Made by a program: the position numbers and the translations under genes. A stretch of DNA of 64,000 bases from contig OZ255842.1 of the NCBI GenBank assembly GCA_965277805.1, positions 4,288,001 through 4,352,000 of the forward strand, given 5' to 3'. Source of the DNA: Candidatus Lustribacter sp. Lineage in GTDB: Bacteria; Vulcanimicrobiota; Vulcanimicrobiia; Vulcanimicrobiales; Vulcanimicrobiaceae. Below the pieces are notes generated by a model. The model did not search any database and was not told where the DNA came from. It saw nothing but the letters and a program-made list of their open reading frames with translations. The first letter of the stretch is position 1. Each line of letters starts with the position of its first letter. Of this stretch, positions 9,168-23,864 are shown piece after piece.

Positions 9168-9212
9168 GCGTTCACAAGGCCATACCAGTCGTAAGGCATA
9201 AAGTTCGGGCCC

Positions 9213-9239
9213 GGGAACCCGGCACGTTCCGTGCCCGTT
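9213..9239 (+). promoter_or_regulatory. Putative ECF sigma promoter (GGGAAC-N18-GTT) upstream of bamA
   Basis: GGAAC 9214-9218, 18-nt spacer, GTT 9237-9239; spacer holds palindrome GGCACG-ttc-CGTGCC 9221-9235; same motif recurs at 57157-57183. Confidence 0.55.
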
Positions 9240-9295
9240 GGTTTCCACAAGGTGCGCGCGCCCGCGCCCCAGTCATCGCTCGCAGGGACAGAAGT

Positions 9296-11626
9296 TTGCT
9301 CGATTGGTTTGGCCGCGCGCCGCGCACGGGGCTCGCGCTCCTCGCATTGTTCGGTTTACTCATGCCGGCCGCAGTCGGCGCGCCAACCCCGACGCCTCCA
9401 GCTGCAGCGCCGACGCCGGCTCCGGCGAGTGCTCCGGCATCGCCGGGTGCGCCAGCCGTTGCGCCGACCGTGGTCGACGTCTCGGTGACGGGCAATACGC
9501 ACGTGCCGACGGACGTGATTCTGTCCGCGGTGAAAACGAAGGTGGGCGAACCGTTCGATCCGGCCGTCGTGACCGACGATCTGCGCGCGATCAACGATCT
9601 CGGCTACTTTGCCGACCAGGCGCCGCCGGTCATCAAGCAGCGTCCCGACGGCGTGTCGGTCACGTTCCGCGTGGTCGAGAACCCGGTCGTCACCAGCATC
9701 CGCTTTCAGGGCAACAAGTCGATTTCGGCCGACACCCTGACCGCGCTCATGGACACCTCGGTCGGTAAAGTCTTCAACCTCAAGACGTATCAAGAAGACG
9801 TCCTGAAGATCAATTCGTATTACGACAAGATCGGATACGGCGGTCAGGTTCCCTCGCACGTCACCGACGTCAACATCGACACGAACGGCGTGCTGACGCT
9901 GACGATTCAAGAAGGCTTGACGGTTCGCAACGTCATCATCGTGCAGCCGCCGGATGCGGATCCCGTATTGCCGGCGCGGCTGATCACCGCCGCGCTCGTA
10001 ACCAAACCGGGCAGCACGTATTCCGAAGCGCAGCGCGACAAAGACACCGACAAGCTCAAAGATCTCTACAAACAGTACGATCTGACCATCGGCGATTTCG
10101 AAGCCGGCATCGATCCGGCCACCGTCGACACGAAGGCCGGTACGGCCGACGTGCGTTACGCGATTTCCGTCGCCCGCGTCGGCGCGGTCGAGATCACCGG
10201 CAACACGACGACGCACGACGACGTGATCCGGCGCGAGCTGCGGATGAAGCCCGGCATGCTCGTCACGGACTCCGGCGTGCGCAACGATTACAACCGGCTC
10301 AACAACCTCGGCTTCTTCGAGAAGGTCGACGTCTCGACCAATCCGGGCCCGGATCCGAAACGCCCGGCGTACGTCACGCTGCACTGGAGCGTCAAGGAAC
10401 AACGCACCGGGACGGCCCAAATCGGCGCCGGCTACTCGGGCGGCATCACCGGCACCGGCCTCACCGGCAACATCTCGTATTCGCAGAACAACATCAACGG
10501 CACGGGTAACGGCGCCTCGATCAAACTCGAGCGCGGCACGCAAGTCAGCGACGCCGAACTGTCGTTCGCGGTGCCGTATCTCGGCAACACGGAAGCCTGG
10601 CAGAAGTACAGCGGCTCGGTGACGATCTTCACCCAGTCGCAAACCAACTACTATCCGGTCTATCAGGCGACGCCCGCGCCGGCGCCGGGAATTACCTCGA
10701 CGCCGATTCCGGTCGGCGCGAACATCCCGGTTTCGATCGTGCCGGCCGATCCGACCAACTACGTGCTCGAGAGCGGCGTAGCGGCGACGTATCAAACGGC
10801 GTCCACCGGCTTCACGGCCTCGATCGGCCGCCGGTTCTCGGATTACTTCCGCGGTTCGCTCGGCTTGAATATCCAAGAAGTCTCAGCCAACGCCACGGTG
10901 CCGCTGCCGTACTTCTTCCCGAGCGAGCAAAACCTCAACCCGATCGCGCTAGCGTCGTCGAGTCCGCTCGACGGTCAAACCACCAGCGCCTCGACCGCCA
11001 TCGGCATCACGGCACCGTCGATCGCCAACATCAATTCGTCGCAACCGTACGCCCTGCACAGCGTCGTGTTCGGCGTCGGCGTCGATACGCGCGACGACAT
11101 CCAGAATCCGCGCACGGGCTGGTCGAGTTCGATCGCCGATGAGGTCTCGAACACCGCCATCGGTTCGGCCTTCGATTATTCGCAAATAACGTTCGACGTG
11201 GCGAAGTTCTTCCCGACGCTCAAACACTCGACGTTCGGCGTTCACTTCCGCTACGGCGTTACCGACGGCGCGATCCCGGTCAACAAACTCTACACCTTCT
11301 CCGATCAGCAGTTGCGCGGCTACACGAACCCGTTCTACGGGACCAACATCGCGCTGGTCCAAGCCGAGCTGCGCTATCCGCTCACGGCCGACCGCAAGGT
11401 GTCGATCGTGCTCTTCGGCGACGAAGGTGCGACGCGCATCGTCGGCGGTCAGCAGCTCAACAGCGACAACTCCACCACCGACCTGAATTCGTTCATCTGG
11501 CATGCCGATGCCGGGGTCGGCGTACGATTCGACATCCCGCAGCTGGGTCTGCACACGCTGCGCCTCGACTTCGGTAAGGGATCGCTCGGCACGCACATCT
11601 CGTTCGGCATCGGTCAGGCGTTCTAG
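9296..11626 (+). CDS. bamA: Omp85 outer membrane protein assembly factor BamA
   Basis: Four POTRA-like repeats, barrel with LRGY motif, C-terminal FGIGQAF. ORF is open from GTG 9164; TTG 9296 preferred (AGGGA upstream, normal-length signal peptide), start uncertain. Confidence 0.9.
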   Translation: MLDWFGRAPRTGLALLALFGLLMPAAVGAPTPTPPAAAPTPAPASAPASPGAPAVAPTVVDVSVTGNTHVPTDVILSAVKTKVGEPFDPAVVTDDLRAINDLGYFADQAPPVIKQRPDGVSVTFRVVENPVVTSIRFQGNKSISADTLTALMDTSVGKVFNLKTYQEDVLKINSYYDKIGYGGQVPSHVTDVNIDTNGVLTLTIQEGLTVRNVIIVQPPDADPVLPARLITAALVTKPGSTYSEAQRDKDTDKLKDLYKQYDLTIGDFEAGIDPATVDTKAGTADVRYAISVARVGAVEITGNTTTHDDVIRRELRMKPGMLVTDSGVRNDYNRLNNLGFFEKVDVSTNPGPDPKRPAYVTLHWSVKEQRTGTAQIGAGYSGGITGTGLTGNISYSQNNINGTGNGASIKLERGTQVSDAELSFAVPYLGNTEAWQKYSGSVTIFTQSQTNYYPVYQATPAPAPGITSTPIPVGANIPVSIVPADPTNYVLESGVAATYQTASTGFTASIGRRFSDYFRGSLGLNIQEVSANATVPLPYFFPSEQNLNPIALASSSPLDGQTTSASTAIGITAPSIANINSSQPYALHSVVFGVGVDTRDDIQNPRTGWSSSIADEVSNTAIGSAFDYSQITFDVAKFFPTLKHSTFGVHFRYGVTDGAIPVNKLYTFSDQQLRGYTNPFYGTNIALVQAELRYPLTADRKVSIVLFGDEGATRIVGGQQLNSDNSTTDLNSFIWHADAGVGVRFDIPQLGLHTLRLDFGKGSLGTHISFGIGQAF

Positions 11627-11632
11627 AACACG

Positions 11633-12445
11633 ATGGAAATGAACACGTTACGCATCGCATCGCGCGTCACGGCACTGGCCGGATTGGCGCTCGTCCTCAC
11701 GGCCGCACCGGCCGTGCTGGCTCAGGAAACGACCGACATCGGGTACGTCGATCAGAATGCACTCTCGTCGATCCCGACTTTCACCGCGGCACGCAAGCAG
11801 ATCGACGCGTACGGCGGCGGTCTGCAAAAAACGTACATCGCGCGCGCCCGCGGCGCTTCGCCGGCCGAACAGCAGCGCCTGAGTGCGGAGTTCCAGCAGA
11901 AGATCGCCGACAAGCAGCGCCAGCTGCTCGGCCCGATCTTCGCCCGCGCGCAGGTCGCGATCGCCTCGGTCGCGTCGAGCCATAACCTCTCGATCGTCGT
12001 GGACAAGCAGATCATCATCGTCGGCGGACAAGACATCACGGGCCCGGTCCGCGATCTGCTCACCGGCGTCGGCGAACCGGTGCCGCCGGTGAATACCCCG
12101 GCACCGTCGACGGTCGGCTACGTGGATCAGACCCAAATCGATGCCTTGCCGGCGATCAAAGCCGCCTCGACCGATTTCCAAAAATTCAAGGCGACCGAAG
12201 ATCAGGATGCCGCCGCGAAATTCAAGACGGCGAAAACGCAAGCCGACCGCGATGCGATCATGAAAGATTATCAAAAGGCGCTCACCGACAAGCAGAGTGC
12301 GACGCTGAAGCCCCTGGTCGACAAAACCCAAGCCGCGATGGCGAGCGTGGCGCAAAAACGTGGACTCATTCTGGTGGTCGATCGCGGCAACGTGATCTAC
12401 GGCGGCACGGATATCACGGCCGACGTCACCAGCGCGATGAAGTAG
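11633..12445 (+). CDS. Skp/OmpH-like chaperone with two tandem OmpH domains
   Basis: Signal peptide; IGYVD...IVGGQDIT then VGYVD...IYGGTDIT; follows bamA. Confidence 0.85.
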   Translation: MEMNTLRIASRVTALAGLALVLTAAPAVLAQETTDIGYVDQNALSSIPTFTAARKQIDAYGGGLQKTYIARARGASPAEQQRLSAEFQQKIADKQRQLLGPIFARAQVAIASVASSHNLSIVVDKQIIIVGGQDITGPVRDLLTGVGEPVPPVNTPAPSTVGYVDQTQIDALPAIKAASTDFQKFKATEDQDAAAKFKTAKTQADRDAIMKDYQKALTDKQSATLKPLVDKTQAAMASVAQKRGLILVVDRGNVIYGGTDITADVTSAMK

Positions 12446-12446
12446 C

Positions 12447-13766
12447 TTGCGCAGACGACTGCTGGCGCTCGCCGCGTGCGGGTTGCTCGCCGCGTGCGCG
12501 CACGGGAGTTCGGAAACGCCCGCGGCAGCGCCGTCGGGCGGTCGCGTCGGGTACGTGCGCATGGACGACCTGGTGAAGAAGCACCCGCTCTTCGGCCAGC
12601 TCGCTCAATACGATGCCAATATCGCGGCGCTCAACCTCAGCGCGCTGGTTCCGCACGTGCTGGCCGGCAGCGCGCAGCTGAAGGCCGAGCAGGCGCGGCT
12701 CGAAGCGCAGCTCGAGGCCGCGGCCAAACGCACCGATGCGCTGCTTGCCGCCAAAGGCAAGAGCTATCAGGACCGCGAGAACGCCGCGATCGCCGCCGCC
12801 CTGCGCGGCGCGGGCGGCGCCGGCGGTCCGAGCGTGGCTGCCATCGAGTCGCAAATGCAAGGCACGGCGAGCTCGCAAGCCGCCGGCGCGGGCGCGCAAG
12901 CCCAGCGCGACCTCGATACGTACCGCAAGCAGCTCGAAGCGCAGGACAACGCGCAGATCACGGCCGCGCAGCGCACGCTCGCCGCACGCGCCGACCGGAC
13001 GTACCGCGCGAAGGCCGACGAACTCAACGCCAAGGAGTCCGCGCTCTCGCTGATGCTGGCGAATGCCGACGCCGCCGAACGGCTCTCGCTGCGAACGCGC
13101 CTCTCGAGCCTCGCGCTCGACGAAGCGGCCCGCACCGACGCCAACAACCAGCTCGCGGCGCTCGATCGCAAGGAAGCCGATCAGGTCGCGGCGCTGCACA
13201 ACATCGACGCGCAGCAGCTGGCGACGCTGCAAGCGCAACTGCGCGCCGGCATCGAGAAAGACATGGGCACGCAGGTGGCCCAGATCCGGCAGCGTTCGGT
13301 GCAGCGCTTCCGCGACCGCGCCGATCAGCTGCGCACGCAATTCCAAACCGCGAGCGGCCCGCTGATCAAGACCTCGGCCAACGGCACCGCGACGGTCAAT
13401 CCGAACCTCCCGCCGGCCTTGCGTCAACGCATCACGCAGCTCCACGCCGACTACACGGCGGCGTTTCAGAACGACGCCAAACAAACCGTGGCCGATTTCC
13501 AGAAGACGCGCGCCGACCTCACCGCGCGCTACCGGCTCCTGACCGGAACCGATGCCGCCGCGGCGCAGAGCGCGCAGTCGGAGATTCTCTCGCTCGAGAA
13601 GAAGCGTCAGGACCTCTACCAGCAGATGGTGGCCCAAATCAATCGTGAAGTGAAGACGATCGCGCAGGAGCGCGGCGTCTCGACCGTGGTCAGCACGGTC
13701 GCGCCGGCCGGCGGCGTCGATCTCACCGGCGACGCTATGAAAGACATCGAAACGTTACATGAATAA
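12447..13766 (+). CDS. Lipoprotein, OmpH-like with very long coiled-coil insert
   Basis: Lipobox LLAAC; RVGYVRMDDL near N-terminus, GGVDLT near C-terminus, ~350 aa Ala/Gln-rich helical region between. Confidence 0.7.
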   Translation: MRRRLLALAACGLLAACAHGSSETPAAAPSGGRVGYVRMDDLVKKHPLFGQLAQYDANIAALNLSALVPHVLAGSAQLKAEQARLEAQLEAAAKRTDALLAAKGKSYQDRENAAIAAALRGAGGAGGPSVAAIESQMQGTASSQAAGAGAQAQRDLDTYRKQLEAQDNAQITAAQRTLAARADRTYRAKADELNAKESALSLMLANADAAERLSLRTRLSSLALDEAARTDANNQLAALDRKEADQVAALHNIDAQQLATLQAQLRAGIEKDMGTQVAQIRQRSVQRFRDRADQLRTQFQTASGPLIKTSANGTATVNPNLPPALRQRITQLHADYTAAFQNDAKQTVADFQKTRADLTARYRLLTGTDAAAAQSAQSEILSLEKKRQDLYQQMVAQINREVKTIAQERGVSTVVSTVAPAGGVDLTGDAMKDIETLHE

Positions 13767-14172
13767 CCGCTTCGGGTTCGCCGCGCTTGCGGCGTCGCTC
13801 TTGGTCATGACCGCCTGTTCGAAACCGCCCGCCGGCGGCGACATCGGGCTCATCGACGTGCAGCGCCTCTCGGCGAACTGGCCGAAGTTCTTGAACTATC
13901 AGAACCAGCTCAATGCCGACGTGAACGCCGTGCGAACCTCGCACCAGTCCGATAGCCAGAAGGCGCGCGAGATGGCCGGGCTGCAGTACCGTTTTCAAAC
14001 CAACCAAACCGAGCTGACCAACAACGTCCACGACGCGGCGCAGCAAGTCGCCAACGACAAACATCTGCGTTTCGTATTCACCCGGCAGAACGTGGGTTAC
14101 GGCGGCGTCGACATCACGCCCGACGTCGAGAAGATTCTCCAAATCGTCGAAAAGCCGACGCCTTCCCCGTGA
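13759..14172 (+). CDS. Small OmpH-like lipoprotein
   Basis: Lipobox-like VMTAC; DIGLIDV and VGYGGVDIT OmpH motifs; 137 aa. Confidence 0.75.
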
Positions 14173-15218
14173 TCGCCGACCTCGGTACGCTCGCGGAGAT
14201 CGCGGCGCGGACCGGCGGCCGGGTGATCGGTGACGCCGGCGTGCGCGTCGGCTTCATCGCCGCGATCGACGACGTCGACGCGACCGCCATGACGTTTGCG
14301 ACCGACGAGCGTTTTTTGCGCGCGGCGCTGGCATCGCGCGCGGCGGCGATTCTGGCCGACGAAAAACTCATCGACCCGCAAGCGAACTACCCCAAACCGA
14401 TCGTGGCGGTGACCTCTCCGCGGCTCGCGCTCGCCACGCTGCTCGCGCTGCTGGAAGCGCCGCGGCCGCGCGGTCCGCACGTCCACCCGAGCGCCGTCAT
14501 CGACCCGAGCGCAACGCTCGGCACGGCCGTGTACGTGGGTCCGCTGGTGACGGTCGGCGCGACCGCATCGATCGGCGCTGAGACGGTGCTCTCGGCCGGC
14601 GTCGTGATCGGCGCGGGTGCGCGCGTCGGGGCGCAGTGCATGCTCCATCCGCGCGCATATGTGGCCGACCGCTGCGTCGTCGGCGACCGGGTGGTGCTGC
14701 AGGCGCAAGCGATCGTCGGCAGCGACGGCTTCGGCTGGGCCTTTCTCGACGGCGCGCTGCAGAAGATTCCGCAGATCGGCATCGTCGAAATCGGCGACGA
14801 TGTGGAGATCGGCGCGAACACGTGCATCGATCGCGCGCAAACCGGCGTGACCTCGATCGGCAACGGCACGAAGATCGACAATCTCTGTCAGATCGGCCAC
14901 AACTGCCGCATCGGCAAACATTCCGCGATCGCGGCGCTGACCGGCCTCGCCGGAACGACGACGATCGGCGATTACGTGCAGGTCGGCGGCCAGAGCGGTT
15001 TTGCCGGACACCTGACGATCGGCGACGGAGCAAAAATCGCCGGCGGCAGCGAGGTCTGGAGCGATGTCGCCGCCGGTGCAAGCGTCAGCGGCTCGCCGGC
15101 GCGCGCGCACCGGGAGAACTTGCGGGTACAGGCGTCCGTACGGCGCCTTCCGAAACTCTACGAACGCGTCGAAGCGCTCGAAAAATCGCGCGCAATCGAA
15201 CATCCCGGCGAGCCGTGA
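14169..15218 (+). CDS. lpxD: UDP-3-O-acylglucosamine N-acyltransferase
   Basis: Hexapeptide repeats, [32 protein letters not shown]. Confidence 0.96.
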
Positions 15219-15221
15219 ACT

Positions 15222-16058
15222 CTGCAGAATCAAGCAACGCTCCGCAACGCGATCGAATTTTCAGGCACCGGTTTGCACACCGGGCGGCCGGCGCACGTGC
15301 GCGTTCTTCCCGCGCCCGCCGCTAGCGGGCTGCGCTTTCGGCTCGACGATGCGGTCGAGTTTCCGGCGCATCCGGATTACGTCGTCGACACGCGCCGCGC
15401 CACCGTCCTCGGTCTGGGCGAACATCGCGTTTCGACGGTCGAGCATTTGCTCTCGGCGCTCTGCGGCAGCGGCGTGACGAACGCGCTGATCGCCGTCGAC
15501 GGCCCGGAGATTCCGGCATCGGACGGCAGCGCGCTCGAGTTCATCGACGCGATCGACGCCGCCGGCATCGACGAACAGCCGTTGCCGCGCGCGTGCAACG
15601 TCGTGCGCGAGCCGCACGTGTTTCGCGACGGCGACAAGCTGCTCGCGATCGTGCCGGCGCCCGCGTTCCGGGTGCGCATGACGATCGACTTTCCGGCACC
15701 GGTCGGCTCGCAATACGTCGACTACGACAGCGCGGCGGTGACGTATCGTACCGCGGTCGCACCCAATCGCACGTTCGGTTTTCGCCACGAGGTCGAAGCG
15801 CTGCTCGCGCGCGGGCTCGCCATGGGCGGCTCGCTCGACAACGCGGTCGTGTTCGACGTCGAGGGCCCGATGGTGCCTCTGCGCGCCGCCGACGAGCCGG
15901 CGCGGCACAAGGTGCTGGATCTGATCGGCGACTTCGCGCTCCTCGGCGCCTACCCGCAGTGCGAGATCATCGCGATCAAGAGCGGTCACGCGCTTCACTT
16001 TACCGCGGTGCGGGCGCTGGTCGACCGCGCTGCCGTCGGCGCGGCGAGCGCGGGCTAA
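15222..16058 (+). CDS. lpxC: UDP-3-O-acyl-GlcNAc deacetylase (start codon anomalous)
   Basis: QATLRNAIEFSGTGLHTG N-terminal motif lies upstream of the track's TTG 15273; TVEHLLSAL, HKVLDLIGD, KSGH; CTG 15222 is the best in-frame start candidate. Confidence 0.93.
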   Translation: MQNQATLRNAIEFSGTGLHTGRPAHVRVLPAPAASGLRFRLDDAVEFPAHPDYVVDTRRATVLGLGEHRVSTVEHLLSALCGSGVTNALIAVDGPEIPASDGSALEFIDAIDAAGIDEQPLPRACNVVREPHVFRDGDKLLAIVPAPAFRVRMTIDFPAPVGSQYVDYDSAAVTYRTAVAPNRTFGFRHEVEALLARGLAMGGSLDNAVVFDVEGPMVPLRAADEPARHKVLDLIGDFALLGAYPQCEIIAIKSGHALHFTAVRALVDRAAVGAASAG

Positions 16059-16061
16059 GCG

Positions 16062-16535
16062 ATGGCGATCATCGACGTGCGCGAGATCATGACGATCTTG
16101 CCGCACCGCTACCCGATGCTCTTGATCGACCGCATCCTTGAACTCGAGCCGATGACCTACGCGCGCGGCTACAAGAACATCACCTTCAACGAACCGATGT
16201 TCGCCGGCCACTTTCCGGGCAATCCCGTGTTGCCCGGCGTGTACATGATCGAAGCACTGGCGCAGCTCGGCGGCTGCACGGTGCTCGAGCCCGGCGACAT
16301 GGCGCGCAAACTCGTGTATCTGGTCGGCATCGACAAGGTGAAGTTCCGGCGCCCGGTCGTGCCGGGCGACCGGCTCGATATGGAAGCGCGCGTGTTGCGC
16401 ACGCGGCGCAACGTCGGCTGGGTGAGCGTCGAAGCGACGGTCGAGGGGAAGACCGCCTGCAGCGGCGAGCTGATGTTCTCGATCGGCGGCGACGCGGCCA
16501 GCACCGCCTACGGCGCGGCGATCCTGAACCAGTGA
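16062..16535 (+). CDS. fabZ: 3-hydroxyacyl-ACP dehydratase
   Basis: LPHRYPMLLIDR, FAGHFPGNPVLPGVYMIEALAQ. Confidence 0.97.
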   Translation: MAIIDVREIMTILPHRYPMLLIDRILELEPMTYARGYKNITFNEPMFAGHFPGNPVLPGVYMIEALAQLGGCTVLEPGDMARKLVYLVGIDKVKFRRPVVPGDRLDMEARVLRTRRNVGWVSVEATVEGKTACSGELMFSIGGDAASTAYGAAILNQ

Positions 16536-17299
16536 TCCATCCGAGTGCCATCGTGCACCCCTCGGCGAATCTCGCGAAGGGCGTGGAAGTCGGTCCGTAT
16601 TGCATCGTCGGCGAACACGTCACGATCGGCGCGCGCTCGACCTTGCTCGCGCACGTGATCGTCAACGGCCACACGACGATCGGCGAAGACGTGATCGTGC
16701 ATCCGTTCGCTTCAATCGGCGCGACCTCGCAGGATCGCAAGGCGGCCGGCGAGATCTCGTATACGAAGATCGGCAACCGCACGATCATCCGCGAATACGC
16801 ATCGATCCACCGCGCGACCGGCCCCGGAAAGTCGACCGTGATCGGCGACGATTGCCTGTTGCTCGCCTACACCCACGTCGCGCACAATTGCACCATCGGC
16901 AACGACGTGACGATGTCGAATCTGGCGCAAGTCGCGGGCCAAGTCGTCGTTGAGGACCACGCCGGCCTTGGCGGGATGGTCGGGGTGCATCAGGACGTGC
17001 GTATCGGCGCGTACGCGTTCGTCGGCGGCATGGCGCGCATCGTGCGCGACGTCCCGCCGTACTTTCTGGCCGAGGGCAACCCGGCCGAAGTGCACGGGCT
17101 CAACAGCGTCGGGTTGCGCCGGCGCAACTTCACCTCCGATACGATCGCCGAGTTGAAGAACGCCTACAAGCTGATCTACCGCTCCGGCAACAACATGCGT
17201 CAGGCGATCGAACTGCTGCGCTCCGAGGTCAGCAGCGACGCCGGCCGCCACCTCCTCGCGTTTCTCGAGGCTCCGTCGGAACGCGGCATTTTGAAATGA
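16532..17299 (+). CDS. lpxA: Acyl-ACP--UDP-GlcNAc O-acyltransferase
   Basis: IHPSAIV, hexapeptide repeats, QDRK, IRE, HVAHNC, GLNSVGLRR. Confidence 0.97.
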   Translation: MIHPSAIVHPSANLAKGVEVGPYCIVGEHVTIGARSTLLAHVIVNGHTTIGEDVIVHPFASIGATSQDRKAAGEISYTKIGNRTIIREYASIHRATGPGKSTVIGDDCLLLAYTHVAHNCTIGNDVTMSNLAQVAGQVVVEDHAGLGGMVGVHQDVRIGAYAFVGGMARIVRDVPPYFLAEGNPAEVHGLNSVGLRRRNFTSDTIAELKNAYKLIYRSGNNMRQAIELLRSEVSSDAGRHLLAFLEAPSERGILK

Positions 17300-18417
17300 C
17301 GGCCGCGCCGGTGCGCGTGTTCGTCAGCACGGGTGAAGCGTCGGGCGAACTGCTGGCCGCCGATCTCATCGGCGCCATGCGCGCGTGCGGCGCGAACGTC
17401 GATGCCGACGGCATCGGCGGCGAACGCCTCGAGGCCGCCGGCGTGCGCCTCACCCAGCGCAGCGCCGGCTGGGCATCGATGGGACCGCTGGATGCGATCG
17501 GCAAGATTCCCAAACTCTTGGCCGTTGCGTTGCGCACGGCGGCGGCGTTGCGCGCGCATCCGCGCGACCTCATCGTGCTGGTCGATTTCGGCGCCTTCAA
17601 CCTGCGTCTCGCGCGCATGATCCGCACGCTCGGCACGACGACGCCGATCATGTATTATTTTCCGCCCGGCGCGTGGCTCGACAATCCGGGCCGCGCTCGA
17701 ACAGTGGCGGAACTGTGCGATCCGGTGACCGCGTTCGTCCACCAGCGCGACTTCTATCAGTCGCTCGGATTGCCGATCAGCTATCACGGTCATCCGCTCG
17801 TCTCGACGATGCTGCCGCGCCCGTTGCGGGCGGCGCCGCCCCCCGGCGGCGGGGTTGTCGCGCTCTTGCCCGGCAGCCGTCCGGGCGAAATCGCGCGCCA
17901 CACGCCGCGTTTGCTCAACGCGCTCGCGCTGTTGCGCGAACGCCGCCCGGAGATCACGGCGGTGCTCGCCGCGGCCGACTCGGCGGCCTACGCCGCGTTC
18001 GAAGAACTGTTGCGTTTGCGCTCGCCGCTGCCGGTGGAACTCGTACGCTCGGCGCGCGAAGCGCTGGTGCGCTGCGATGCGGCCGCGGTTGCGTCGGGAA
18101 CCGCCGTGCTCGAAGCGGCGCTGCTCGAAGTTCCGTCGATCGCGCTCTACGTACTCTCGGAAGCGACCGCGAAAGTCGCGCGCCGCGTGTATCACCGGCC
18201 CTATGTCACGTTGCCGAACCTCGTGCTGGACGAAGCGGTCGTGCCGGAACTCTTGCAAGACGATGCCACGCCGCAGGCGCTGGCCGATGCACTCGGGCGC
18301 GCGCTCGACGCGCCGGATGCGCAGCTCGCGGGCTTCCGCCGTCTGCGCGAAGCGCTCGGTCCGCCGGATGCGCTCGAACGCTGCGCGCGCTTTGCGTTGC
18401 GGTTGGCCGGACGATGA
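17296..18417 (+). CDS. lpxB: Lipid-A-disaccharide synthase
   Basis: GEASGE, VDFGAFN, GHPL, LLPGSR, SGTAVLE, LPNL, PELLQ. Confidence 0.93.
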   Translation: MTAAPVRVFVSTGEASGELLAADLIGAMRACGANVDADGIGGERLEAAGVRLTQRSAGWASMGPLDAIGKIPKLLAVALRTAAALRAHPRDLIVLVDFGAFNLRLARMIRTLGTTTPIMYYFPPGAWLDNPGRARTVAELCDPVTAFVHQRDFYQSLGLPISYHGHPLVSTMLPRPLRAAPPPGGGVVALLPGSRPGEIARHTPRLLNALALLRERRPEITAVLAAADSAAYAAFEELLRLRSPLPVELVRSAREALVRCDAAAVASGTAVLEAALLEVPSIALYVLSEATAKVARRVYHRPYVTLPNLVLDEAVVPELLQDDATPQALADALGRALDAPDAQLAGFRRLREALGPPDALERCARFALRLAGR

Positions 18418-19130
18418 TCCGCATCTATCACACGAGCGACCTGCACGACCACCGGCACTTCGCCGCCCCGCTGCGACGTTTGCGCGCCGAGCGGCCCGGC
18501 TTGCTGGTCGATTGCGGCGACTCGCTGCGCGGTTCGCAAACGGTGTACCGCGGGCGCGAACCGATCGTCGACGAACTCGATGCGGCCGGGTACGACGTCA
18601 CGGCCATGGGCAATCGCGAATTCCATTACCTGTTCGGTTTGGTCGGCCGCCGGCTGCGCAAGATGCATCATCCGGTGGTGTGCGCGAACTTGGTCGACGT
18701 GCGCGGCCGTGCGCTGCCCTTTGCTTCGGACGCGCTGGTGCGCGCGAACGACGGTGAGGCGGTGCGCTTCTTCGGTTTGCTCGTGCCGCAGTATCCCGCC
18801 GGTTCGCGCTGGGAGCGCATCTTCGGCTGGCGTTTTCTCGACCCGGTGACGGTCGCAACGGAGATCGTGCGCACGACGCCGCGCGGCGTGACGCTCGTGG
18901 CGCTCTCGCACCTGGGCTTGCGCGCCGATCGCGAACTCGCGCAGGCCGCGGGCGGCATCGACGTGATCCTCGGCGGTCATTCGCACGACACGCTGCCCGA
19001 ACCCGAAGTGGTCAACGGCGTGCCGATCGTGCACGCGGGACCGTACGGCGCGTTTGCATCGTGCACCGAACTCGTGCGCGACGGCGATCGCGCGCGCATC
19101 GCGAATTTCGCGCTGCTTCCGCTGACGTGA
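18414..19130 (+). CDS. Calcineurin-like metallophosphoesterase (5'-nucleotidase N-domain type); candidate UDP-2,3-diacylglucosamine hydrolase
   Basis: ATG overlaps lpxB stop; 238 aa; SDLH, DCGD, GNREF, SHLG, GGHSH; no signal peptide. Confidence 0.88.
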   Translation: MIRIYHTSDLHDHRHFAAPLRRLRAERPGLLVDCGDSLRGSQTVYRGREPIVDELDAAGYDVTAMGNREFHYLFGLVGRRLRKMHHPVVCANLVDVRGRALPFASDALVRANDGEAVRFFGLLVPQYPAGSRWERIFGWRFLDPVTVATEIVRTTPRGVTLVALSHLGLRADRELAQAAGGIDVILGGHSHDTLPEPEVVNGVPIVHAGPYGAFASCTELVRDGDRARIANFALLPLT

Positions 19131-20218
19131 GCGCCGCGATTCTCTTCGTGACCAACGGTCACGGCGAAGCATCGATTGCAGCGAAGATCGCGCGCGAGGT
19201 GCGCGCGCGCGCGCCGCTCGCGACCGAGCACCTGGCGCTGGTCGGCGAACGCTTCGGCGACGCGGATTTCCCCGACGTCGGACCGCAGCGCGCGATGCCC
19301 AGCGGCGGGCTCGTTGCGATGGGCAACGTTCGCGCCTTCGCCCGCGATCTCGGCGCGGGCTGGCTCGGCCTGTTCGCGGCGCAGTTGCGTTTTCTGGCCG
19401 GGGTGCGCGATCGCTACGCTGCCGTCGTCGCGGTCGGCGATGCGTATGCCGCCGCGCTCGTGCGCATCGCACGCCGGCCGTGGATCTTCGTCGGCACCGC
19501 CAAGAGCGCGTACGTGGCGCCGTATTCCGGCATCGAGCGGGAGATCATCGCGCCGGCCGCGCGGCTGTTCGTACGCGACGCAGCGACGGCGGACGTCTTG
19601 CGCCGGCACGGTCTGCGCGCCGAGGCGCCGGGCAACGTCATCGTCGATCTGCTGGCGGAAGATCGCCGTTACGCGTGGCCGGCTCCGGTGCGCATCGCGG
19701 TTCTGCCCGGCAGCCGCGAGCGCGCGTACGGCGACGCCGAACGGATCGCAACGATCGTCGACCGCGTGGCCGAACGCGTGCCCGGCGTGGCCGCCGTGCT
19801 TTCACTTGCGCCGACGCTCGAACGCGCGCGCTTCGCGCCGCTGCTCGAACGCCATCCCGCACTCGCCGTCTGGAGCGACGGCATCGGCGGCATCCTCGCC
19901 GGCGCGACGCTCGCGATCGGCCAAGCCGGTACCGCGAACGAAGCAGCAGCCGCCAGCGGCGTCCCGGTCGTCGCGCTCGATCTCAGCGACGATCGGCGCA
20001 GCGACTGGTACCGCATGCGTCAAGAACGTTTGCTCGCCGCGGGGATGCTGATCGTCCCCGGCGATCCGGCCGCGGCCGCCGACGTAATCGTCGCGCTGCT
20101 CGGCGATCCCGCGCGTTTGGCGCGGATGGGAGCGGCCGGCCGCGAACGCATGGGATCCGCGGGCGGCGCGGCCGCGATCGCGCAGGCGATCGTGCAACTC
20201 GCCGGAGCGCCGGCGTGA
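19127..20218 (+). CDS. Lipid-A-disaccharide-synthase-related GT-B protein (TIGR03492-like)
   Basis: GTG overlaps previous stop; TNGHGE, MPSGG, VGDAY, GTAKS, LPGSR, AGTANE, RMG motifs. Confidence 0.8.
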   Translation: MSAAILFVTNGHGEASIAAKIAREVRARAPLATEHLALVGERFGDADFPDVGPQRAMPSGGLVAMGNVRAFARDLGAGWLGLFAAQLRFLAGVRDRYAAVVAVGDAYAAALVRIARRPWIFVGTAKSAYVAPYSGIEREIIAPAARLFVRDAATADVLRRHGLRAEAPGNVIVDLLAEDRRYAWPAPVRIAVLPGSRERAYGDAERIATIVDRVAERVPGVAAVLSLAPTLERARFAPLLERHPALAVWSDGIGGILAGATLAIGQAGTANEAAAASGVPVVALDLSDDRRSDWYRMRQERLLAAGMLIVPGDPAAAADVIVALLGDPARLARMGAAGRERMGSAGGAAAIAQAIVQLAGAPA

Positions 20219-21432
20219 GCGCGGCCGATCGCACCGTCGTCGCGGCGATCGCGTTCATGTACGTCGCGATCCCGCTCTACGGCACGTTCGAAGTGCTCGA
20301 TCCGGTGCGGCTGCCGATCCCGGCGCTGGTCGGCGCGCACGGCGCGATCGCGATCGCGCTGGCCATGCTGGCTGCCGCGACGATCTGCGCGTGGGGTGCG
20401 TTCCGCCGTCCGGCGCCGCGGCGCATCGTGCTCGCGCAACTGCTGGCCGGCGTCGCGATCGTCCCCGGTGCGCTGCTGGGCTTCGATCCGCAGACCGGGC
20501 TCGAACTCGCGCTGATCGTGCTGGCGATGGGCGTCGTCGGCGTGGCGCTCTACGGCTATGCGCAACTGCCGGGCGTGACGCGCACGATCGTGATCGCCTG
20601 GCTCGCATCGGCGGCGCTCGCGACGGTGACCGCGCTCGCGATGGTCGCGCTGCGCAAGCCCGCGGCGCTCTATGCATACAACAACGGGCGCGCGGTGGGC
20701 ACGTTCCTCAACCCGAACGAACTCGCGGCGTATCTGCTGGTGGTCCTCGGCCTCGCCGCCGGCGTCGCGTGTTACGCGCGCAGCGCGCCCTTGCGGCTGC
20801 TCGCCGGCGTAACGCTGGTTGCGGGCCTCGCCGGTCTCGCGGCGACGTATTCGCGTTGGGGTTTGCTCTCCGCTGCGGCCGGAATGCTGTTTTTCGCCAT
20901 CCTGGCGCGCAACCGGCGGATCTGGGCCGGTCTCGCGGTGGTGGTGCTGGCGGCTTTCGTGCTCGTGCTGGGCCCGGGGGCGGCGCATCACAATCCGCGC
21001 GACGACACCTCGCGCATCATCGCCTTTCAGACCGGCGTGCGGACGTGGCTTGCGTTCCCGCTTACCGGCGTTGGTCCGTTCGCTTACCGCCGCACCTACG
21101 AGGTGCTGCGGCCGCCGGAAGCGCCGGGTGGCGAAGCGCCGGTGGCCTTCGATCCGCACAGCCTGCCGCTGGCGTATCTCGACGAGTCGGGCCTGATCGG
21201 GTTCGGGGCGCTCTTGTGGTGCTGGTCGGTGTACATCCGCGAGATACCGCGGGTGCTGCGCGCGGCCGATCCGCGACGGCGCGCGCTCGTGTACGCGGTG
21301 GCGGCCGGACTCGTCGCGCTCAACGTGCACGTCCTCGTGAACACGATCAGCATCTACTTCGCACTGGCCACGCAAGGCGCGGCGCTGGCGCTGGCACTGG
21401 CGCAACGGGATCTGGATGCGCCCGCGGCTTGA
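20215..21432 (+). CDS. O-antigen ligase (WaaL/Wzy_C) family membrane protein
   Basis: GTG 20215; many TM segments; RAVGTFLNPNELA, TYSR, PLTGVG, PHS...ESGLIG. Confidence 0.88.
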   Translation: MSAADRTVVAAIAFMYVAIPLYGTFEVLDPVRLPIPALVGAHGAIAIALAMLAAATICAWGAFRRPAPRRIVLAQLLAGVAIVPGALLGFDPQTGLELALIVLAMGVVGVALYGYAQLPGVTRTIVIAWLASAALATVTALAMVALRKPAALYAYNNGRAVGTFLNPNELAAYLLVVLGLAAGVACYARSAPLRLLAGVTLVAGLAGLAATYSRWGLLSAAAGMLFFAILARNRRIWAGLAVVVLAAFVLVLGPGAAHHNPRDDTSRIIAFQTGVRTWLAFPLTGVGPFAYRRTYEVLRPPEAPGGEAPVAFDPHSLPLAYLDESGLIGFGALLWCWSVYIREIPRVLRAADPRRRALVYAVAAGLVALNVHVLVNTISIYFALATQGAALALALAQRDLDAPAA

Positions 21433-21970
21433 ACTGCTGGTTGCCGCCGCGCTGACCGCGTGCGCGCACCCCGCAGCCGGTCCGGCCCGCGCGCCGAGCG
21501 CCGCACCGGCCGCGACCGCGACGCCGTTGCCGCTGCACATTACGAGCTCCGGCGGAACCGGCCAATACACGACCCTGAGCGAGATGAAGCACCAGCGAAC
21601 GATCTACATCATCCGCGCAACGTCGTTCGCCGCCGACACCGCGACCGGGCGCACGCCGACCGGCAGCGGCACCTTCGTCCAGCCGCACATCACCTTCATC
21701 GACCGCGACGGCGCGCGCACGGTCGCCGATGCGCCGGAGGCCGTCTTGACGAGTGCCGATAAGAGCGTTCTCATGACGGGCGGAGTACACGCGCGATCGC
21801 AAGACGGCAACGTGTTGTCCTGCGATCGTCTGCGCTATGATGGGACTTCGGAGCGCATCCATGGCGACGGCAACGTGGTGATGACCACGCCCTCCGGCCT
21901 CGTGCTGGCCGGCGACGAGTTCGACGGCGACGCCCGCTTGCAGAACGTCCGGGTGTACCGCCGCAAATGA
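21416..21970 (+). CDS. lptC: LptC/LptA-like beta-jellyroll LPS export lipoprotein
   Basis: Lipobox LTAC; MTGGV, LSCDRLRYD, GDGNV strands; directly upstream of lptB. Confidence 0.75.
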   Translation: MRPRLELLVAAALTACAHPAAGPARAPSAAPAATATPLPLHITSSGGTGQYTTLSEMKHQRTIYIIRATSFAADTATGRTPTGSGTFVQPHITFIDRDGARTVADAPEAVLTSADKSVLMTGGVHARSQDGNVLSCDRLRYDGTSERIHGDGNVVMTTPSGLVLAGDEFDGDARLQNVRVYRRK

Positions 21971-22707
21971 TGCAAGACCGCATCGTAATGACCGACCTCG
22001 TGAAACGCTACGGCACGCGCACGGTGGTCAAGAGCGTCAGCGCCGACGTGCAGCGCGGCGAAGTCGTCGGCCTGCTCGGCCCCAACGGTGCCGGCAAGAC
22101 GACCACGTTCTACATGGTCGTCGGCTTAGTGCGCCCCGACAGCGGCAGCGTGACGCTCGAACGCGCGGGCGCCGGCCGCGACATCACGCTGGCACCGATG
22201 CACGAACGCGCGCGCGCCGGCATCGGCTACCTGGCGCAGGAAAACTCGATCTTCCGCAAGCTTTCGGTGGGCGATAACCTGCGCCTTATCTGGGAGATGA
22301 ACGGCGTCGACGAAGAAGAGCGCGAGCGTCGCCTGCCGGCGCTGCTCGGCGAGTTCGGTCTCGCCGACTTGGTCGACGCGCGCGGCGATTCGCTCTCGGG
22401 CGGCGAGCGGCGGCGCGTCGAGATCGCGCGTGCCATTGCGACCGAACCCGCGTTTCTGCTCTTGGACGAACCGTTCACCGGCATCGATCCGATCGCCGTG
22501 GCCGATATCCAAGCGATGATCCGGCAGTTGCGCGATCGCGGACTCGGCGTGCTGATCACCGATCACCAAGTGCGCGAAACGCTGGCGATCGTCGATCGCG
22601 CCTACATCCTCAACGAAGGCAAGATCGAAGTCTCCGGCACCGCCGACGATGTGCTGGCCTCGCCCGTCGCGCGGAAGTTCTACTTAGGCGAAGGCTTCCG
22701 GCTGTGA
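21967..22707 (+). CDS. lptB: LPS export ABC transporter ATP-binding protein
   Basis: GPNGAGKTTTFYM, SIFRKL, LSGGERRR, LLDEPFTGIDP, YLGEGFRL. Confidence 0.96.
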   Translation: MMQDRIVMTDLVKRYGTRTVVKSVSADVQRGEVVGLLGPNGAGKTTTFYMVVGLVRPDSGSVTLERAGAGRDITLAPMHERARAGIGYLAQENSIFRKLSVGDNLRLIWEMNGVDEEERERRLPALLGEFGLADLVDARGDSLSGGERRRVEIARAIATEPAFLLLDEPFTGIDPIAVADIQAMIRQLRDRGLGVLITDHQVRETLAIVDRAYILNEGKIEVSGTADDVLASPVARKFYLGEGFRL

Positions 22708-23864
22708 GCACGCAGGCGCTGCGGCGCAACGCATCCGCGTTGCGCAACGAGCTCGAGCCGCTGCGCGTCACGATTCTCGACCGCTATCTCGTGGCCGAAC
22801 TCGGCGGTCCGGCGCTCTTCGGTGCGGCGGCGTTCACGCTGATCTTCGTTGCGACGCAATTTCTCGCGATCGGCCGGCTCGTCTCGCAGCAGAACGTTCC
22901 GCTCTTGGTCGCGATCGAATATTTTCTGTGGGAGATGCCGGCCTATCTGCTCGACGTCGTGCCGATGGCAATGCTGTTCGGCACGCTGCTCTCGATCGGC
23001 CGGCTCTCCAGCGAGAGCGAGATCACGGCGCTCAAAGCCGGCGGCATCTCGCTGATCCGGATGTTTTTGCCGCTGGCCGTGGTGGGGCTCGTCGTCTCGT
23101 TCGCGGCTCTGATCGTGCAAGAAGCGCTCGTGCCGCTGGCCAACGATCAGGCCGCCTATCTGCAAGAAACCGCCATCGAACACGTGTCGCCCGCGGCCTC
23201 GAATCTCTCGGCCGTGACGAACCTTGCCGGCGGCGGCAAACAGGTGACGATTGCGGGCGGCCTCGACGCAGCCACGCAAACGCTGCTCAACGTCACCGTG
23301 CTGCGGTACGATTCCAAGCAAACGATCCAGGAGATGATCGTCAGCAAACGCGCCCGCTACAATGCGCCGAACTGGCAATTTCAGGACGCGACGACCTACC
23401 ATTTCTCCGACGGCGACGTCTCGGACAAGATGGTCACCCCCGGCACGCTTTCGGTCGACATCGGCGAGCGTCCGAGCGAAATGGCCAAGCACACGCTCCA
23501 AGCGAACGATCCTGAGAATCTCTCGCGCAGCGAGATCAAGAACGCGCTCGATAACGTGAACCTGAGCGAATCGCAGCGCAAGCTCTTCACCGCGACCTAC
23601 GCAGCCAAGCTTGCTCGCCCGTTCGCCTCGCTCGTCTTCGTGCTGTTTGCGTTTCCGCTCGGAATGCGGCGCATTCGCGGCGGCGGCGCCGCGCTCGGCT
23701 TTGGGCTTGCGCTGCTGATCGTGTTCGTCTACTACGTGATCACGACGATCGCGCTGTCGATCGGCAGTTTGGCGTTGCCGCTCGCCGGGATTGCGGCTTG
23801 GACGCCGAACGCTCTGTTCAGCTTGATCGGACTGTGGCTTTTGCGCCGGGCGTCGGCGATATGA
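22704..23864 (+). CDS. LptF/LptG family permease
   Basis: ILDRYL, LSSESEITALKAGGIS, 3+3 TM layout, AAWTPN. Confidence 0.92.
   Translation: MSTQALRRNASALRNELEPLRVTILDRYLVAELGGPALFGAAAFTLIFVATQFLAIGRLVSQQNVPLLVAIEYFLWEMPAYLLDVVPMAMLFGTLLSIGRLSSESEITALKAGGISLIRMFLPLAVVGLVVSFAALIVQEALVPLANDQAAYLQETAIEHVSPAASNLSAVTNLAGGGKQVTIAGGLDAATQTLLNVTVLRYDSKQTIQEMIVSKRARYNAPNWQFQDATTYHFSDGDVSDKMVTPGTLSVDIGERPSEMAKHTLQANDPENLSRSEIKNALDNVNLSESQRKLFTATYAAKLARPFASLVFVLFAFPLGMRRIRGGGAALGFGLALLIVFVYYVITTIALSIGSLALPLAGIAAWTPNALFSLIGLWLLRRASAI

Follow-up and report, generated by a model that had tools for sequence, protein, structure and literature searches.

A short GNRE metallophosphoesterase encoded beside lpxB, a candidate UDP-2,3-diacylglucosamine pyrophosphatase of Candidatus Lustribacter sp.

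The synthesis of lipid A passes obligatorily through lipid X, and three enzyme classes are known to form it: LpxH, LpxI and LpxG (PMC13018214, 2026). For Cyanobacteria and Dictyoglomi, a 2010 account lists only lpxA, lpxC, lpxD and lpxB, and the passages of it drawn on here name no lipid X enzyme (PMC3087551). The lipid A cluster of Candidatus Lustribacter sp., located in the window analyzed here (the whole stretch of 64,000 nucleotides), raises the question of which protein forms the lipid X required by LpxB. The gene considered as an answer (18414..19130, plus strand) encodes a short GNRE metallophosphoesterase, a candidate UDP-2,3-diacylglucosamine pyrophosphatase, which was characterized by translation, Pfam (Metallophos), hhalign and an AlphaFold2 model.

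The cluster lies on the plus strand and opens with bamA (POTRA and Omp85 matches) and three Skp/OmpH-like ORFs (OmpH matches), which together occupy 9164..14172. These are followed by lpxD (14169..15218; TIGR01853, 318.7 bits), lpxC (15273..16058; PF03331, 270 bits; TIGR00325, 214.8 bits), fabZ (16062..16535; TIGR01750, 179.7 bits), lpxA (16532..17299; TIGR01852, 309.1 bits) and lpxB, encoding the lipid-A-disaccharide synthase (17296..18417; PF02684, 212 bits; TIGR00215, 191.5 bits with a cut-off of 190.25). The first-pass annotation had placed lpxA, lpxC, lpxD and lpxB in this cluster, and the Pfam and NCBIfam matches confirm all four. The listed lpxC ORF starts at about position 15 of the model, and its true start may be further upstream. 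Beyond the phosphoesterase gene lies a GT19 paralogue of LpxB (19127..20218), which is TIGR03492-like (E 2e-53; 181.5 bits over model positions 1-394, under the 219.2 cut-off) and whose GTG start was placed where the TIGR03492 alignment begins. Next comes a Wzy_C/O-antigen-ligase-like (IctB-like) membrane protein of uncertain start (20212..21432; a long frame with PF04932 at 54.7 bits and weak matches to TIGR00947 and TIGR03097); in related loci, conservation of this region begins about 1.1 kb past the phosphoesterase gene. The LPS export genes lptC, lptB and lptG complete the series (21416..23864; TIGR04409, TIGR04406 with 338 bits, and TIGR04408). A promoter and terminator scan of positions 9000-25500 yielded nothing that exceeded shuffled sequences.

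The phosphoesterase ORF translates into 238 aa with no internal stops and overlaps its neighbors at both ends. Its ATG overlaps the lpxB stop at the junction ...ggacgATGAtc..., the lpxB ORF ending at 18417, in agreement with the earlier description of a 238-aa phosphoesterase coupled to lpxB. The TGA at 19128-19130 in turn overlaps the GTG at 19127 of the LpxB paralogue (GTGA), a feature that the first-pass annotation had overlooked. Every motif listed in that annotation is present in the translation: DLH (D9-H11), GD (G35-D36), GNREF (66-70), SHLG (165-168) and GGHSH (187-191), as are the basic/aromatic segments HYLFGLVGRRLRK and RWERIFGWRF. The N-terminus reads MIRIYHTSDLHD, and in the AlphaFold2 model (pLDDT 97.9) residues 2-7 form the first β-strand; because the chain opens directly with this strand, the protein has neither a signal peptide nor a membrane helix. 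Metallophos (PF00149; 30.0 bits, cut-off 21.5) covers residues 2-191 and is the sole Pfam domain. The same scan found no C-terminal 5_nucleotid_C domain (PF02872), the chain ending at residue 238, and neither of the LpxI domains (PF06230, PF17930). The proposed absence of a signal peptide and of a C-terminal nucleotidase domain is thus borne out by the model and by the Pfam scan. Nine residues, D9, H11, D36, N67, R68, E69, H166, H189 and H191, are invariant in 24/24 orthologues and in 61/61 sequences of the wider family alignment, and the alignment of the 24 orthologues further defines a conserved segment particular to the short phosphoesterases, QYPxGSxWExxFGWRFxDP.

The closest characterized relatives are found among the 5'-nucleotidases. 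With hhalign, the 61-sequence alignment matches E. coli UshA with a probability of 99.9% (E 4.4e-33, 239 columns), the aligned stretch of UshA being 33-319 and residue 2 of the phosphoesterase corresponding to UshA residue 33; the UshA-type character first suspected from the motifs is thereby extended to the UshA N-domain. A phmmer search of the PDB reached vertebrate 5'-nucleotidases at E 2e-12 (snake-venom 5h7w and human CD73), and the best folds in Foldseek were 5'-nucleotidase N-domains (TM 0.77-0.82, E 1e-17). The whole phosphoesterase corresponds to the N-terminal dinuclear metallophosphatase domain of UshA, with the DxH, GD, GN, H and GHxH ligands all kept. It differs from UshA and the 5'-nucleotidases in having no signal peptide and no 5_nucleotid_C, whereas the long relatives carry 5_nucleotid_C; CD73 and B. 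subtilis YunD are further members of this family. A further difference from UshA lies in the active site, where UshA His117 aligns with Arg68 and UshA Asp120 with His71 (hhalign), the two UshA residues being what we take to be its catalytic pair. E. coli UshA (b0480) is annotated as '5'-nucleotidase/UDP-sugar hydrolase', and from this annotation and the homology it follows that the parent family natively cleaves UDP-sugar pyrophosphates. In a tree of the 131 database representatives that were kept, 74 have fewer than 300 aa and carry GNR, and 44 have at least 400 aa and carry GNH. The long GNH forms constitute one clade (SH-aLRT 99), with every short GNRE form outside it. Judged from these sequences, the short GNRE forms are a distinct clade derived from the UshA/5'-nucleotidase lineage.

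The comparison with LpxH gives a different picture, in which general features are shared and close kinship is absent. Both proteins belong to the metallophosphoesterase superfamily, with about 240 aa, a cytoplasmic location and no membrane helix; the reaction proposed here is that of LpxH, and LpxH also serves LpxB. In both, the motif-III His is replaced by Arg, E. coli LpxH having IHGNRDF (GNRD) and the phosphoesterase GNRE. The cited passages of PMC5016852 describe this replacement as occurring 'only in LpxH', in which Arg80 forms a salt bridge with the lipid X phosphate; together with the GNRD of the E. coli enzyme, they support the first-pass annotation in reading GNREF, in place of GNHEF, as an LpxH hallmark. 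Motif II of the phosphoesterase, in contrast, is GDSLRGS, of the 5'-nucleotidase type. The LpxH models TIGR01854 and NF003743 gave no match to the phosphoesterase even at E <= 10; the positive control, E. coli LpxH (b0524), scored 388.9 and 363.4 bits. The hhalign comparison of the 61-sequence alignment with E. coli LpxH reached a probability of 1.2% over 22 columns, located around GHxH alone, and no LpxH chain occurs among the 50 Foldseek matches listed. The AlphaFold2 model does not contain the LpxH-like helical lid for burying acyl chains, and two short helices (132-137 and 144-154) stand in that place. Nesting inside LpxH, which had been named beforehand as a check, is contradicted by the model searches and by hhalign.

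LpxG and LpxI offer two further points of comparison. LpxG, represented by Chlamydia trachomatis Ct461, is described as a 37-kDa protein with an N-terminal transmembrane helix and the motifs DXH...GDXXDR...GNHD (PMC4807358). It is likewise a metallophosphoesterase, the search for it also set out from a pathway lacking both LpxH and LpxI, and it was found by complementation of a conditional E. coli lpxH mutant; its reaction is the one proposed here. Set against this published description, the phosphoesterase differs in its 238 aa, its lack of a membrane helix, and its GDSLRG and GNRE motifs. No NCBIfam model named for LpxG was among the matches for the phosphoesterase or for E. coli LpxH. LpxI, found in alphaproteobacteria and diderm Firmicutes, performs the same pathway step with an unrelated fold and mechanism, and its gene has been reported to adjoin lpxB too, in the lpxACDIBK cluster (PMC5007114).

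The genome of Candidatus Lustribacter sp. is complete (5.53 Mb, a single contig) and was searched whole. TIGR01854 (LpxH) and PF06230 (LpxI_C) each had 0 matches in its 5.53 Mb, and LpxK, WaaA and Cdh were likewise not found. A motif scan in all six frames, covering open frames 120 aa or longer and based on the published LpxG motif, found none with the pattern DxH...GDxxDR...GN[HR][DE]. The genome encodes eight other Metallophos proteins: three YfcE-like (two of them under the family cut-off), one SbcD-like, one matching TIGR00282, a full-length 5'-nucleotidase of 583 aa, and two more, each some 500 aa long, without an NCBIfam name. The picture is the same across a sample of 151 Eremiobacterota genomes, which, coming from one phylum, are not independent observations: LpxH was found in 0/151 and LpxI_C in 0/151 (one profile each), LpxB in 150/151, a homologue of the phosphoesterase at E <= 1e-5 in 150/151, and the TIGR03492-like paralogue in 150/151. 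The LpxH/LpxI profile search and the co-occurrence with lpxB, both suggested beforehand as checks, therefore favor the earlier proposal. With homologues in 150 genomes and nine invariant catalytic-site residues, the ORF can also be taken as a genuine gene, as opposed to one that arose by chance in GC-rich DNA. The two exceptions were considered as natural knock-outs and rejected: the lpxB match is itself only partial in the sole genome without the phosphoesterase (G131), and in the sole genome without LpxB (G026) the TIGR03492 match begins at contig base 2, which points to an assembly gap, so that both look like gaps and provide no informative co-loss. The absence of LpxH and LpxI is read from two profiles, and an unrecognized hydrolase of another fold may fill the lipid X step.

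On balance, we favor the reading that the phosphoesterase is probably a non-orthologous UDP-2,3-diacylglucosamine pyrophosphatase, recruited from an UshA-type N-terminal domain, and we regard it as the best candidate for the lipid X enzyme of bacteria without LpxH, LpxI and LpxG. The protein would act as a cytoplasmic dinuclear-metal pyrophosphatase, converting UDP-2,3-diacylglucosamine into UMP and lipid X (2,3-diacylglucosamine 1-phosphate). Lipid X would then be the acceptor that the upstream, translationally coupled LpxB condenses with a second UDP-2,3-diacylglucosamine. Seven canonical metal ligands are predicted to hold the metal pair, which would activate a water molecule, and Arg68, in place of the catalytic His, may form a salt bridge with the sugar-side phosphate, like Arg80 of LpxH. 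The nucleotide-binding C-domain is proposed to be dispensable because the lipid and sugar-phosphate portion of the substrate would anchor it. This step of the Raetz pathway requires a cytoplasmic enzyme, which the phosphoesterase, having no signal peptide, fits.

Gene order was examined across the phylum, in genome contigs and in metagenome contigs. Of the genome-contig loci, 60 extend 900 nt or more upstream; the end of lpxB lies no more than 300 nt from the phosphoesterase gene in 48 of these and no more than 3 kb away in a further 9. Of 65 metagenome-contig loci, 60 fall in the first distance class and 1 in the second. The link with lpxB persists in the most divergent classes, in which phosphoesterase identity falls to 30-41% and one to three genes lie between the two: an LpxB-like gene, an LmtA-like methyltransferase and a 166-aa ORF. 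LmtA is a family named after the methylation of the lipid A 1-phosphate. The GT19 paralogue adjoins the phosphoesterase in 61/62 loci of genome contigs and 62/63 of metagenome contigs, and in one genus (g42) a divergent orthologue lies directly 5' of a stand-alone TIGR03492 gene, lpxB being 1.8 kb off on the opposite strand. Because linkage to the paralogue is at least as tight as that to lpxB, phyletic pattern and synteny cannot separate a protein that serves LpxB from one that serves the paralogue. The metagenome scan yielded close relatives only (60-77% identity), the plasmid collection ordinary 5'-nucleotidases and SoxB only, and no cyanobacterial cluster is named among the nearest Atlas clusters listed for the stored homologues. 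Two further lines were rejected. Loci carrying NCBI labels of other phyla (Melainabacteria, Synergistia, Burkholderiales and others) proved to be identical loci of the same GTDB phylum. Several LpxB-phosphoesterase fusions of 560-680 aa, considered as Rosetta-stone evidence, are all single-member clusters, and in one that was examined the stretch with GD and GNRE is out of frame before the frame is regained, which was taken as a frameshift artefact of GC-rich assembly.

The tightness of the paralogue linkage gives rise to the main rival reading, in which the phosphoesterase serves the GT19 paralogue or acts after LpxB and lipid X is made otherwise; for example, the lipid A disaccharide might lose its 1-phosphate, or a group attached through a pyrophosphate, on the cytoplasmic side, or the phosphoesterase might prepare the acceptor for the paralogue. 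We consider this unlikely, although several observations speak for it: the phosphoesterase stop overlaps the paralogue start, adjacency to the paralogue exceeds direct adjacency to lpxB in both contig sets, the g42 orthologue precedes a paralogue gene that stands apart from lpxB, and LpxK and WaaA are missing from the genome. Cyanobacterial LPS, made with the same four-enzyme gene set, has been described as containing no phosphate (PMC3087551), which makes a phosphate-removing step plausible. Assigning the protein to the paralogue would, however, leave the obligatory lipid X step without a candidate in 151 genomes. A 1-phosphatase role also encounters the problem of location, as known lipid A 1-phosphatases work on the periplasmic face of the membrane, and the phosphoesterase has no signal peptide. 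Furthermore, the His-to-Arg replacement removes the monoesterase residue and matches LpxH, a pyrophosphatase, according to the cited part of PMC5016852. The LmtA-like methyltransferase gene that adjoins the phosphoesterase in sister classes hints that the 1-phosphate is retained there.

A second alternative, which appears improbable, is a general soluble hydrolase of nucleotides or nucleotide sugars (UDP/UMP, UDP-sugars) that deals with the by-products of LpxB. The breadth of the parent family, which spans 5'-nucleotidases, 2',3'-cyclic phosphodiesterases, NAD nucleotidases and SoxB, would allow such a function, and the source annotations of relatives read 5'-nucleotidase or cyclic-nucleotide phosphodiesterase. 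The C-terminal domain of 5'-nucleotidases binds the nucleotide base, yet this other half of the enzyme is missing here, and no member retains the catalytic His. Moreover, a scavenger would not be expected as a phylum-wide single-copy core gene fixed in a lipid A operon, and the genome already has its full-length 583-aa 5'-nucleotidase. Least probable of all is a bifunctional enzyme that would first convert UDP-2,3-diacylglucosamine to lipid X and, in addition, dephosphorylate a later intermediate, giving the phosphate-poor lipid A expected without LpxK: the pyrophosphatase and monoesterase activities annotated for UshA, the absence of LpxK and WaaA, and the tight coupling to both GT19 genes are in its favor, but loss of the catalytic His, by analogy with LpxH as described in the cited part of PMC5016852, would speak against efficient monoester hydrolysis.

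The lipid X-forming pyrophosphatase thus remains the reading we favor. The independent recruitment suggested in the first-pass annotation gains from the computed checks on LpxH and LpxI, from the distinct clade and from synteny, and it is weakened by the linkage to the paralogue, which is at least as tight as that to lpxB, by the genes that intervene after lpxB in the divergent classes, and by the lack of an LpxH-like lid in the model.

Our survey of the literature, mostly of work outside subscription journals, found no prior description of a fourth class or of short GNRE phosphoesterases. As a tentative wider view, which we hold as possible and no more probable than that, the short phosphoesterases may constitute a fourth, independently evolved lipid X-forming class, derived from a UDP-sugar hydrolase of the UshA type and having arrived by convergence at the His-to-Arg replacement of LpxH; with the paralogue replacing the missing Kdo transferase, this would amount to a Kdo- and LpxK-independent route to LPS in Eremiobacterota, probably in Armatimonadota, and possibly in other four-enzyme Terrabacteria. 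If true, a fourth class would explain how the pathway is completed in at least one four-enzyme phylum, and the arrival of two unrelated superfamily branches at the same His-to-Arg replacement would provide a clean case of active-site convergence. A phylum widespread in soil and peat would also gain better annotation, and work on the specificity of LpxH-directed inhibitors an extra test case.

The open reading frame at 18414–19130 (+) is translated into a 238-aa metallophosphoesterase, P0001, in which all the motifs named in the first-pass annotation were found. It belongs to a co-directional cluster ordered bamA, three Skp-like ORFs, lpxD, lpxC, fabZ, lpxA, lpxB, P0001, a GT19-family LpxB paralogue, a Wzy_C-like membrane protein, lptC, lptB and lptG, located on the single 5.53-Mb contig of the source genome (G000), where the window spans C1:4288001–4352000; the public-genome relatives of the window are Eremiobacterota / Vulcanimicrobiota. 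The reported coupling to lpxB is confirmed, with the P0001 start overlapping the lpxB stop (ATGA). A second coupling was missed in that sequence-only annotation: the P0001 stop overlaps the GTG (GTGA) that opens the GT19 paralogue at 19127–20218 (+), a ‘lipid-A-disaccharide synthase-related’ gene matching TIGR03492 across the full model length (E 2e-53), but under the curated cut-off. Between bamA and lpxD, at 11633–14172 (+), three consecutive ORFs carry OmpH/Skp-like C-terminal parts (270, 439 and 137 aa); as the DNA is GC-rich here, the 439-aa frame could have been called too long. The segment 23798–27741 (+) contains genes for a DUF3084 protein and for an 849-aa protein that has an SLH domain and matches ‘iron uptake porin’ (somB-type), as well as a small RuvX/RuvC-like ORF, features that we take to be otherwise typical of cyanobacterial outer membranes.

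The initial claim that lpxH and lpxI are missing holds at the level of the whole genome: profile searches of G000 returned no LpxH, LpxI_C, LpxK, WaaA N-domain or Cdh match, and the searches for all five proteins were positive in the expected control genomes. These absences accompany the order lpxD-lpxC-fabZ-lpxA-lpxB, and the same ‘four-enzyme’ cluster (lpxA, lpxC, lpxD and lpxB only) is described for Cyanobacteria and Dictyoglomi in the available text of PMC3087551. Nine G000 proteins match Metallophos, P0001 included; the other eight comprise three YfcE-like proteins (two under the family cut-off), one SbcD-like, one TIGR00282, one full-length 583-aa 5′-nucleotidase and two of ~500 aa without an NCBIfam name. 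The published LpxG motif DXH...GDXXDR...GNH/RD was absent, by regular-expression search, from all G000 open frames of 120 aa or more, and DxH...GD...GNR[DE] occurred in P0001 only, spurious Arg-rich frames aside. Among 151 evenly drawn genomes of the phylum, including G000 and one unpublished genome (G128), LpxB, a P0001 homologue (E ≤ 1e-5) and a TIGR03492-like protein were each detected in 150, and LpxH and LpxI_C in none (0/151 each), so the co-occurrence with lpxB proposed as a check is borne out. The genome lacking a P0001 homologue (G131) has a partial lpxB match (model positions 2–173), and we suspect a contig end; the genome lacking LpxB (G026) contains LpxC and a TIGR03492 match beginning at base 2 of its contig, and this gap is one of assembly. 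The strongest P0001 matches in two genera of family f6 (g42 and g66) are long paralogues, and a divergent short orthologue (~30% identity, 274–281 aa) still lies near the lpx genes.

To place P0001 within the metallophosphoesterases, sequence, profile and structural comparisons were combined. Pfam assigns Metallophos alone (30 bits), and the top NCBIfam matches, all far under their cut-offs, are the N-terminal domains of SoxB-, CpdB-, NadN- and UshA-type enzymes. Among sequences of solved structures, the best matches were vertebrate 5′-nucleotidases (snake-venom 5h7w and human CD73) and other 5′-nucleotidases (E 2e-12), with no LpxH chain matched at E ≤ 1. For the AlphaFold2 model, a very high-confidence prediction that used an alignment of 61 sequences (pLDDT 97.9, pTM 0.94), the best Foldseek matches were the B. 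subtilis YunD model, E. coli UshA and CD73 (TM 0.77–0.82 on the query). In a direct test with E. coli lpxH and ushA taken from the K-12 record, hhalign aligned the family with UshA over residues 33–319 (probability 99.9%, E 4.4e-33), whereas for LpxH the probability was 1.2% and the alignment was confined to 22 columns at the GHxH motif; LpxH models did not match P0001 even at E ≤ 10, the E. coli LpxH control scoring 388.9 bits. On the strength of this contrast, P0001 is regarded as a free-standing counterpart of the N-terminal catalytic domain in the UshA/5′-nucleotidase lineage, in agreement with the UshA-type motifs initially described for it, and not as a divergent form of LpxH.

The metal site is intact, with D9, H11, D36, N67, R68, E69, H166, H189 and H191 invariant in 24 orthologues (30–72% identity), and in 61 sequences once a second clade of short forms is included. 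In the UshA alignment, His117 of GNHEF, which presumably forms the catalytic pair with Asp120, corresponds to Arg68 of P0001, and Asp120 to His71. The equivalent motif of E. coli LpxH reads IHGNRDF. According to the available portion of the PaLpxH structure paper (PMC5016852), this position holds a catalytic His in many metallophosphoesterases, an Arg replaces it ‘only in LpxH’, and this Arg80 forms a salt bridge to the phosphate of lipid X. This upholds and sharpens the earlier view of this Arg as an LpxH hallmark. The alignments indicate that the His-to-Arg substitution also arose in a superfamily branch different from that of LpxH.

A HMMER scan yielded 7086 matches at E ≤ 1e-3, and among the best 150 of the 50%-identity representatives the motif is GNRE in short forms and GNH[DE] in long ones; only three representatives of 225–295 aa lack GNRE, namely P0145 (garbled), P0165 (GNHE) and P0265 (GNRD). 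A tree of the family comprises 154 rows: P0001, 131 representatives (19 of the 150, with matches under 170 query residues, were left out), 15 Eremiobacterota orthologues and seven long Bacillota/Actinomycetota forms. One clade (SH-aLRT 99) unites 51 long GNH rows with three others, and all 90 short GNRE rows fall outside it; as the tree was obtained by quick-mode search with midpoint rooting only and no bootstrap, it is read as indicating a short GNRE/long GNH split, with no direction of change. The second clade within the short forms (46 rows, SH-aLRT 99; P0137, P0151, P0155, P0162, P0172, P0174, P0209 and 39 further rows) contains none of the 15 Eremiobacterota loci in the tree; its motif II reads DAGDAxxAGN, and the QYPxGSxWE segment is missing. 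Across the 151 phylum genomes, identity to its member P0137 does not exceed 45%, and in the rows checked (e.g., G000, G004 and G145) the match is the P0001 orthologue locus itself. The ten members looked up are known from metagenome-type records (JGI/IMG, ENA, Logan, MetaClust) and from no NCBI genome record. Armatimonadota is the commonest phylum in the Atlas clusters nearest P0137, and Vulcanimicrobiota and Armatimonadota appear for a clade-1 homologue, both from few members and as leads only. Apparent LpxB-phosphoesterase and phosphoesterase-GT19 fusions (P0127, P0199, P0273–P0277; 560–680 aa) are all single-member clusters of public metagenome/genome predictions, and the reading frame of P0276, examined in detail, is broken by out-of-frame segments; frameshift artefacts of GC-rich assemblies are the probable explanation for the whole set.

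Because the loci are related to one another, the following counts show how widely the arrangement is conserved in the phylum and should not be read as independent events. Genome contigs supplied 72 loci, seven of them long-form (L065–L071) and excluded; lpxB lies within 300 nt in 48 of the 60 loci with at least 900 nt upstream and within 3 kb in a further nine, the remaining three having it at 3.9 kb (L060) and 4.4 kb (L062) or showing no match in 3.1 kb (L056), and the GT19 paralogue is directly downstream in 61/62. Metagenome contigs (80 loci) gave 60 of 65 within 300 nt, one more within 3 kb, and 62/63 for the paralogue. Linkage to the GT19 paralogue is thus at least as tight as linkage to lpxB. 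The TIGR03492 search was also positive for two controls, Synechococcus elongatus and Deinococcus radiodurans, and we found no paper on this GT19 family; since G000 lacks WaaA and LpxK, the paralogue is a candidate for adding the first core sugar of a Kdo-independent LPS.

In divergent classes, lpxA is followed by lpxB, in some cases an LpxB-like gene, and then an ICMT-family methyltransferase gene, the P0001 orthologue and TIGR03492. This ICMT/PEMT-family membrane methyltransferase gene either separates lpxB from the phosphoesterase gene or lies beside them (L054:5357–5992 (+), L059:4897–5478 (+), L073:2641–3303 (-), L074:6341–6967 (+)); its best named match is LmtA (E 6e-15 to 7e-13, far under cut-off), the O-methyltransferase of the lipid A 1-phosphate, and its presence may be a sign that this phosphate is methylated. 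A Gfo/Idh/MocA oxidoreductase gene, absent from the window's own lpx cluster, lies between fabZ and lpxA (L054:2286–3311 (+), L059:686–1660 (+), L073:6622–7569 (-)); the first two best match UDP-N-acetylglucosamine 3-dehydrogenase (E 1e-79 and 3e-78, under cut-off), the third was identified by Pfam only, and they may point to a 2,3-diamino-sugar (GlcN3N) lipid A. In 12 family-f6 genomes (G003, G012, G019, G025, G034, G037, G042, G044, G056, G064, G066 and G074), LpxB lies inside an 807–857-aa open frame. Both examples examined (L073:3306–5834 (-) and L074:3904–6348 (+)) consist of an N-terminal LpxB followed by ~440 aa without a Pfam match, the whole protein matching TIGR03492 weakly, best in the LpxB half; recurring across genomes, this form looks natural, unlike the phosphoesterase fusions.

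LpxB needs an acceptor, none of the known enzymes that supply it was detected, and P0001 is the only hydrolase in the cluster. Its family is typified by a UDP-sugar hydrolase, and P0001 itself has turned cytoplasmic, lost the C-terminal domain and gained the substitution characteristic of LpxH; we therefore lean, by a modest measure, towards P0001 being a non-orthologous UDP-2,3-diacylglucosamine pyrophosphatase. Its principal competitor, rather unlikely in our estimation, is action after LpxB, such as cytoplasmic removal of the 1-phosphate: the tight GT19 linkage would suit it, as would a pathway without LpxK and WaaA in which lipid A could be phosphate-poor, as the accessible part of PMC3087551 reports for cyanobacteria, but no candidate would then remain for the lipid X step. 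In sister classes, the neighbour with a weak LmtA match hints at the presence of a 1-phosphate, which fits lipid X formation. Because P0001, lpxB and the GT19 paralogue are all universal, the comparative data do not tell which transferase P0001 serves. A general nucleotide hydrolase, improbable here, would agree with the family name but misfits the lost domain, the lost His and the fixed operon position, and a bifunctional enzyme is very improbable.

The known lipid X-forming classes are LpxH and LpxI, with LpxG added as the third (PMC4807358), and the same three are listed in a 2026 account (PMC13018214), both as far as their available text extends. P0001 shows none of the features published for LpxG in that portion of PMC4807358 (37 kDa, N-terminal membrane helix, GDXXDR and GNHD motifs), a separation by description only. 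It shares with LpxH the Arg of motif III (GNRE against GNRD) but not detectable profile homology, and its model has no LpxH-like helical lid that would account for lipid binding, a point against the pyrophosphatase reading. In a literature search of incomplete coverage, we found no description of a fourth lipid X class, the short GNRE family or Eremiobacterota lpx genes. New here are the phylum-wide counts, the direct UshA and LpxH profile tests, the short/long split, the equal linkage to the GT19 paralogue, the probable Armatimonadota clade and the rejection of the fusions as probable artefacts.
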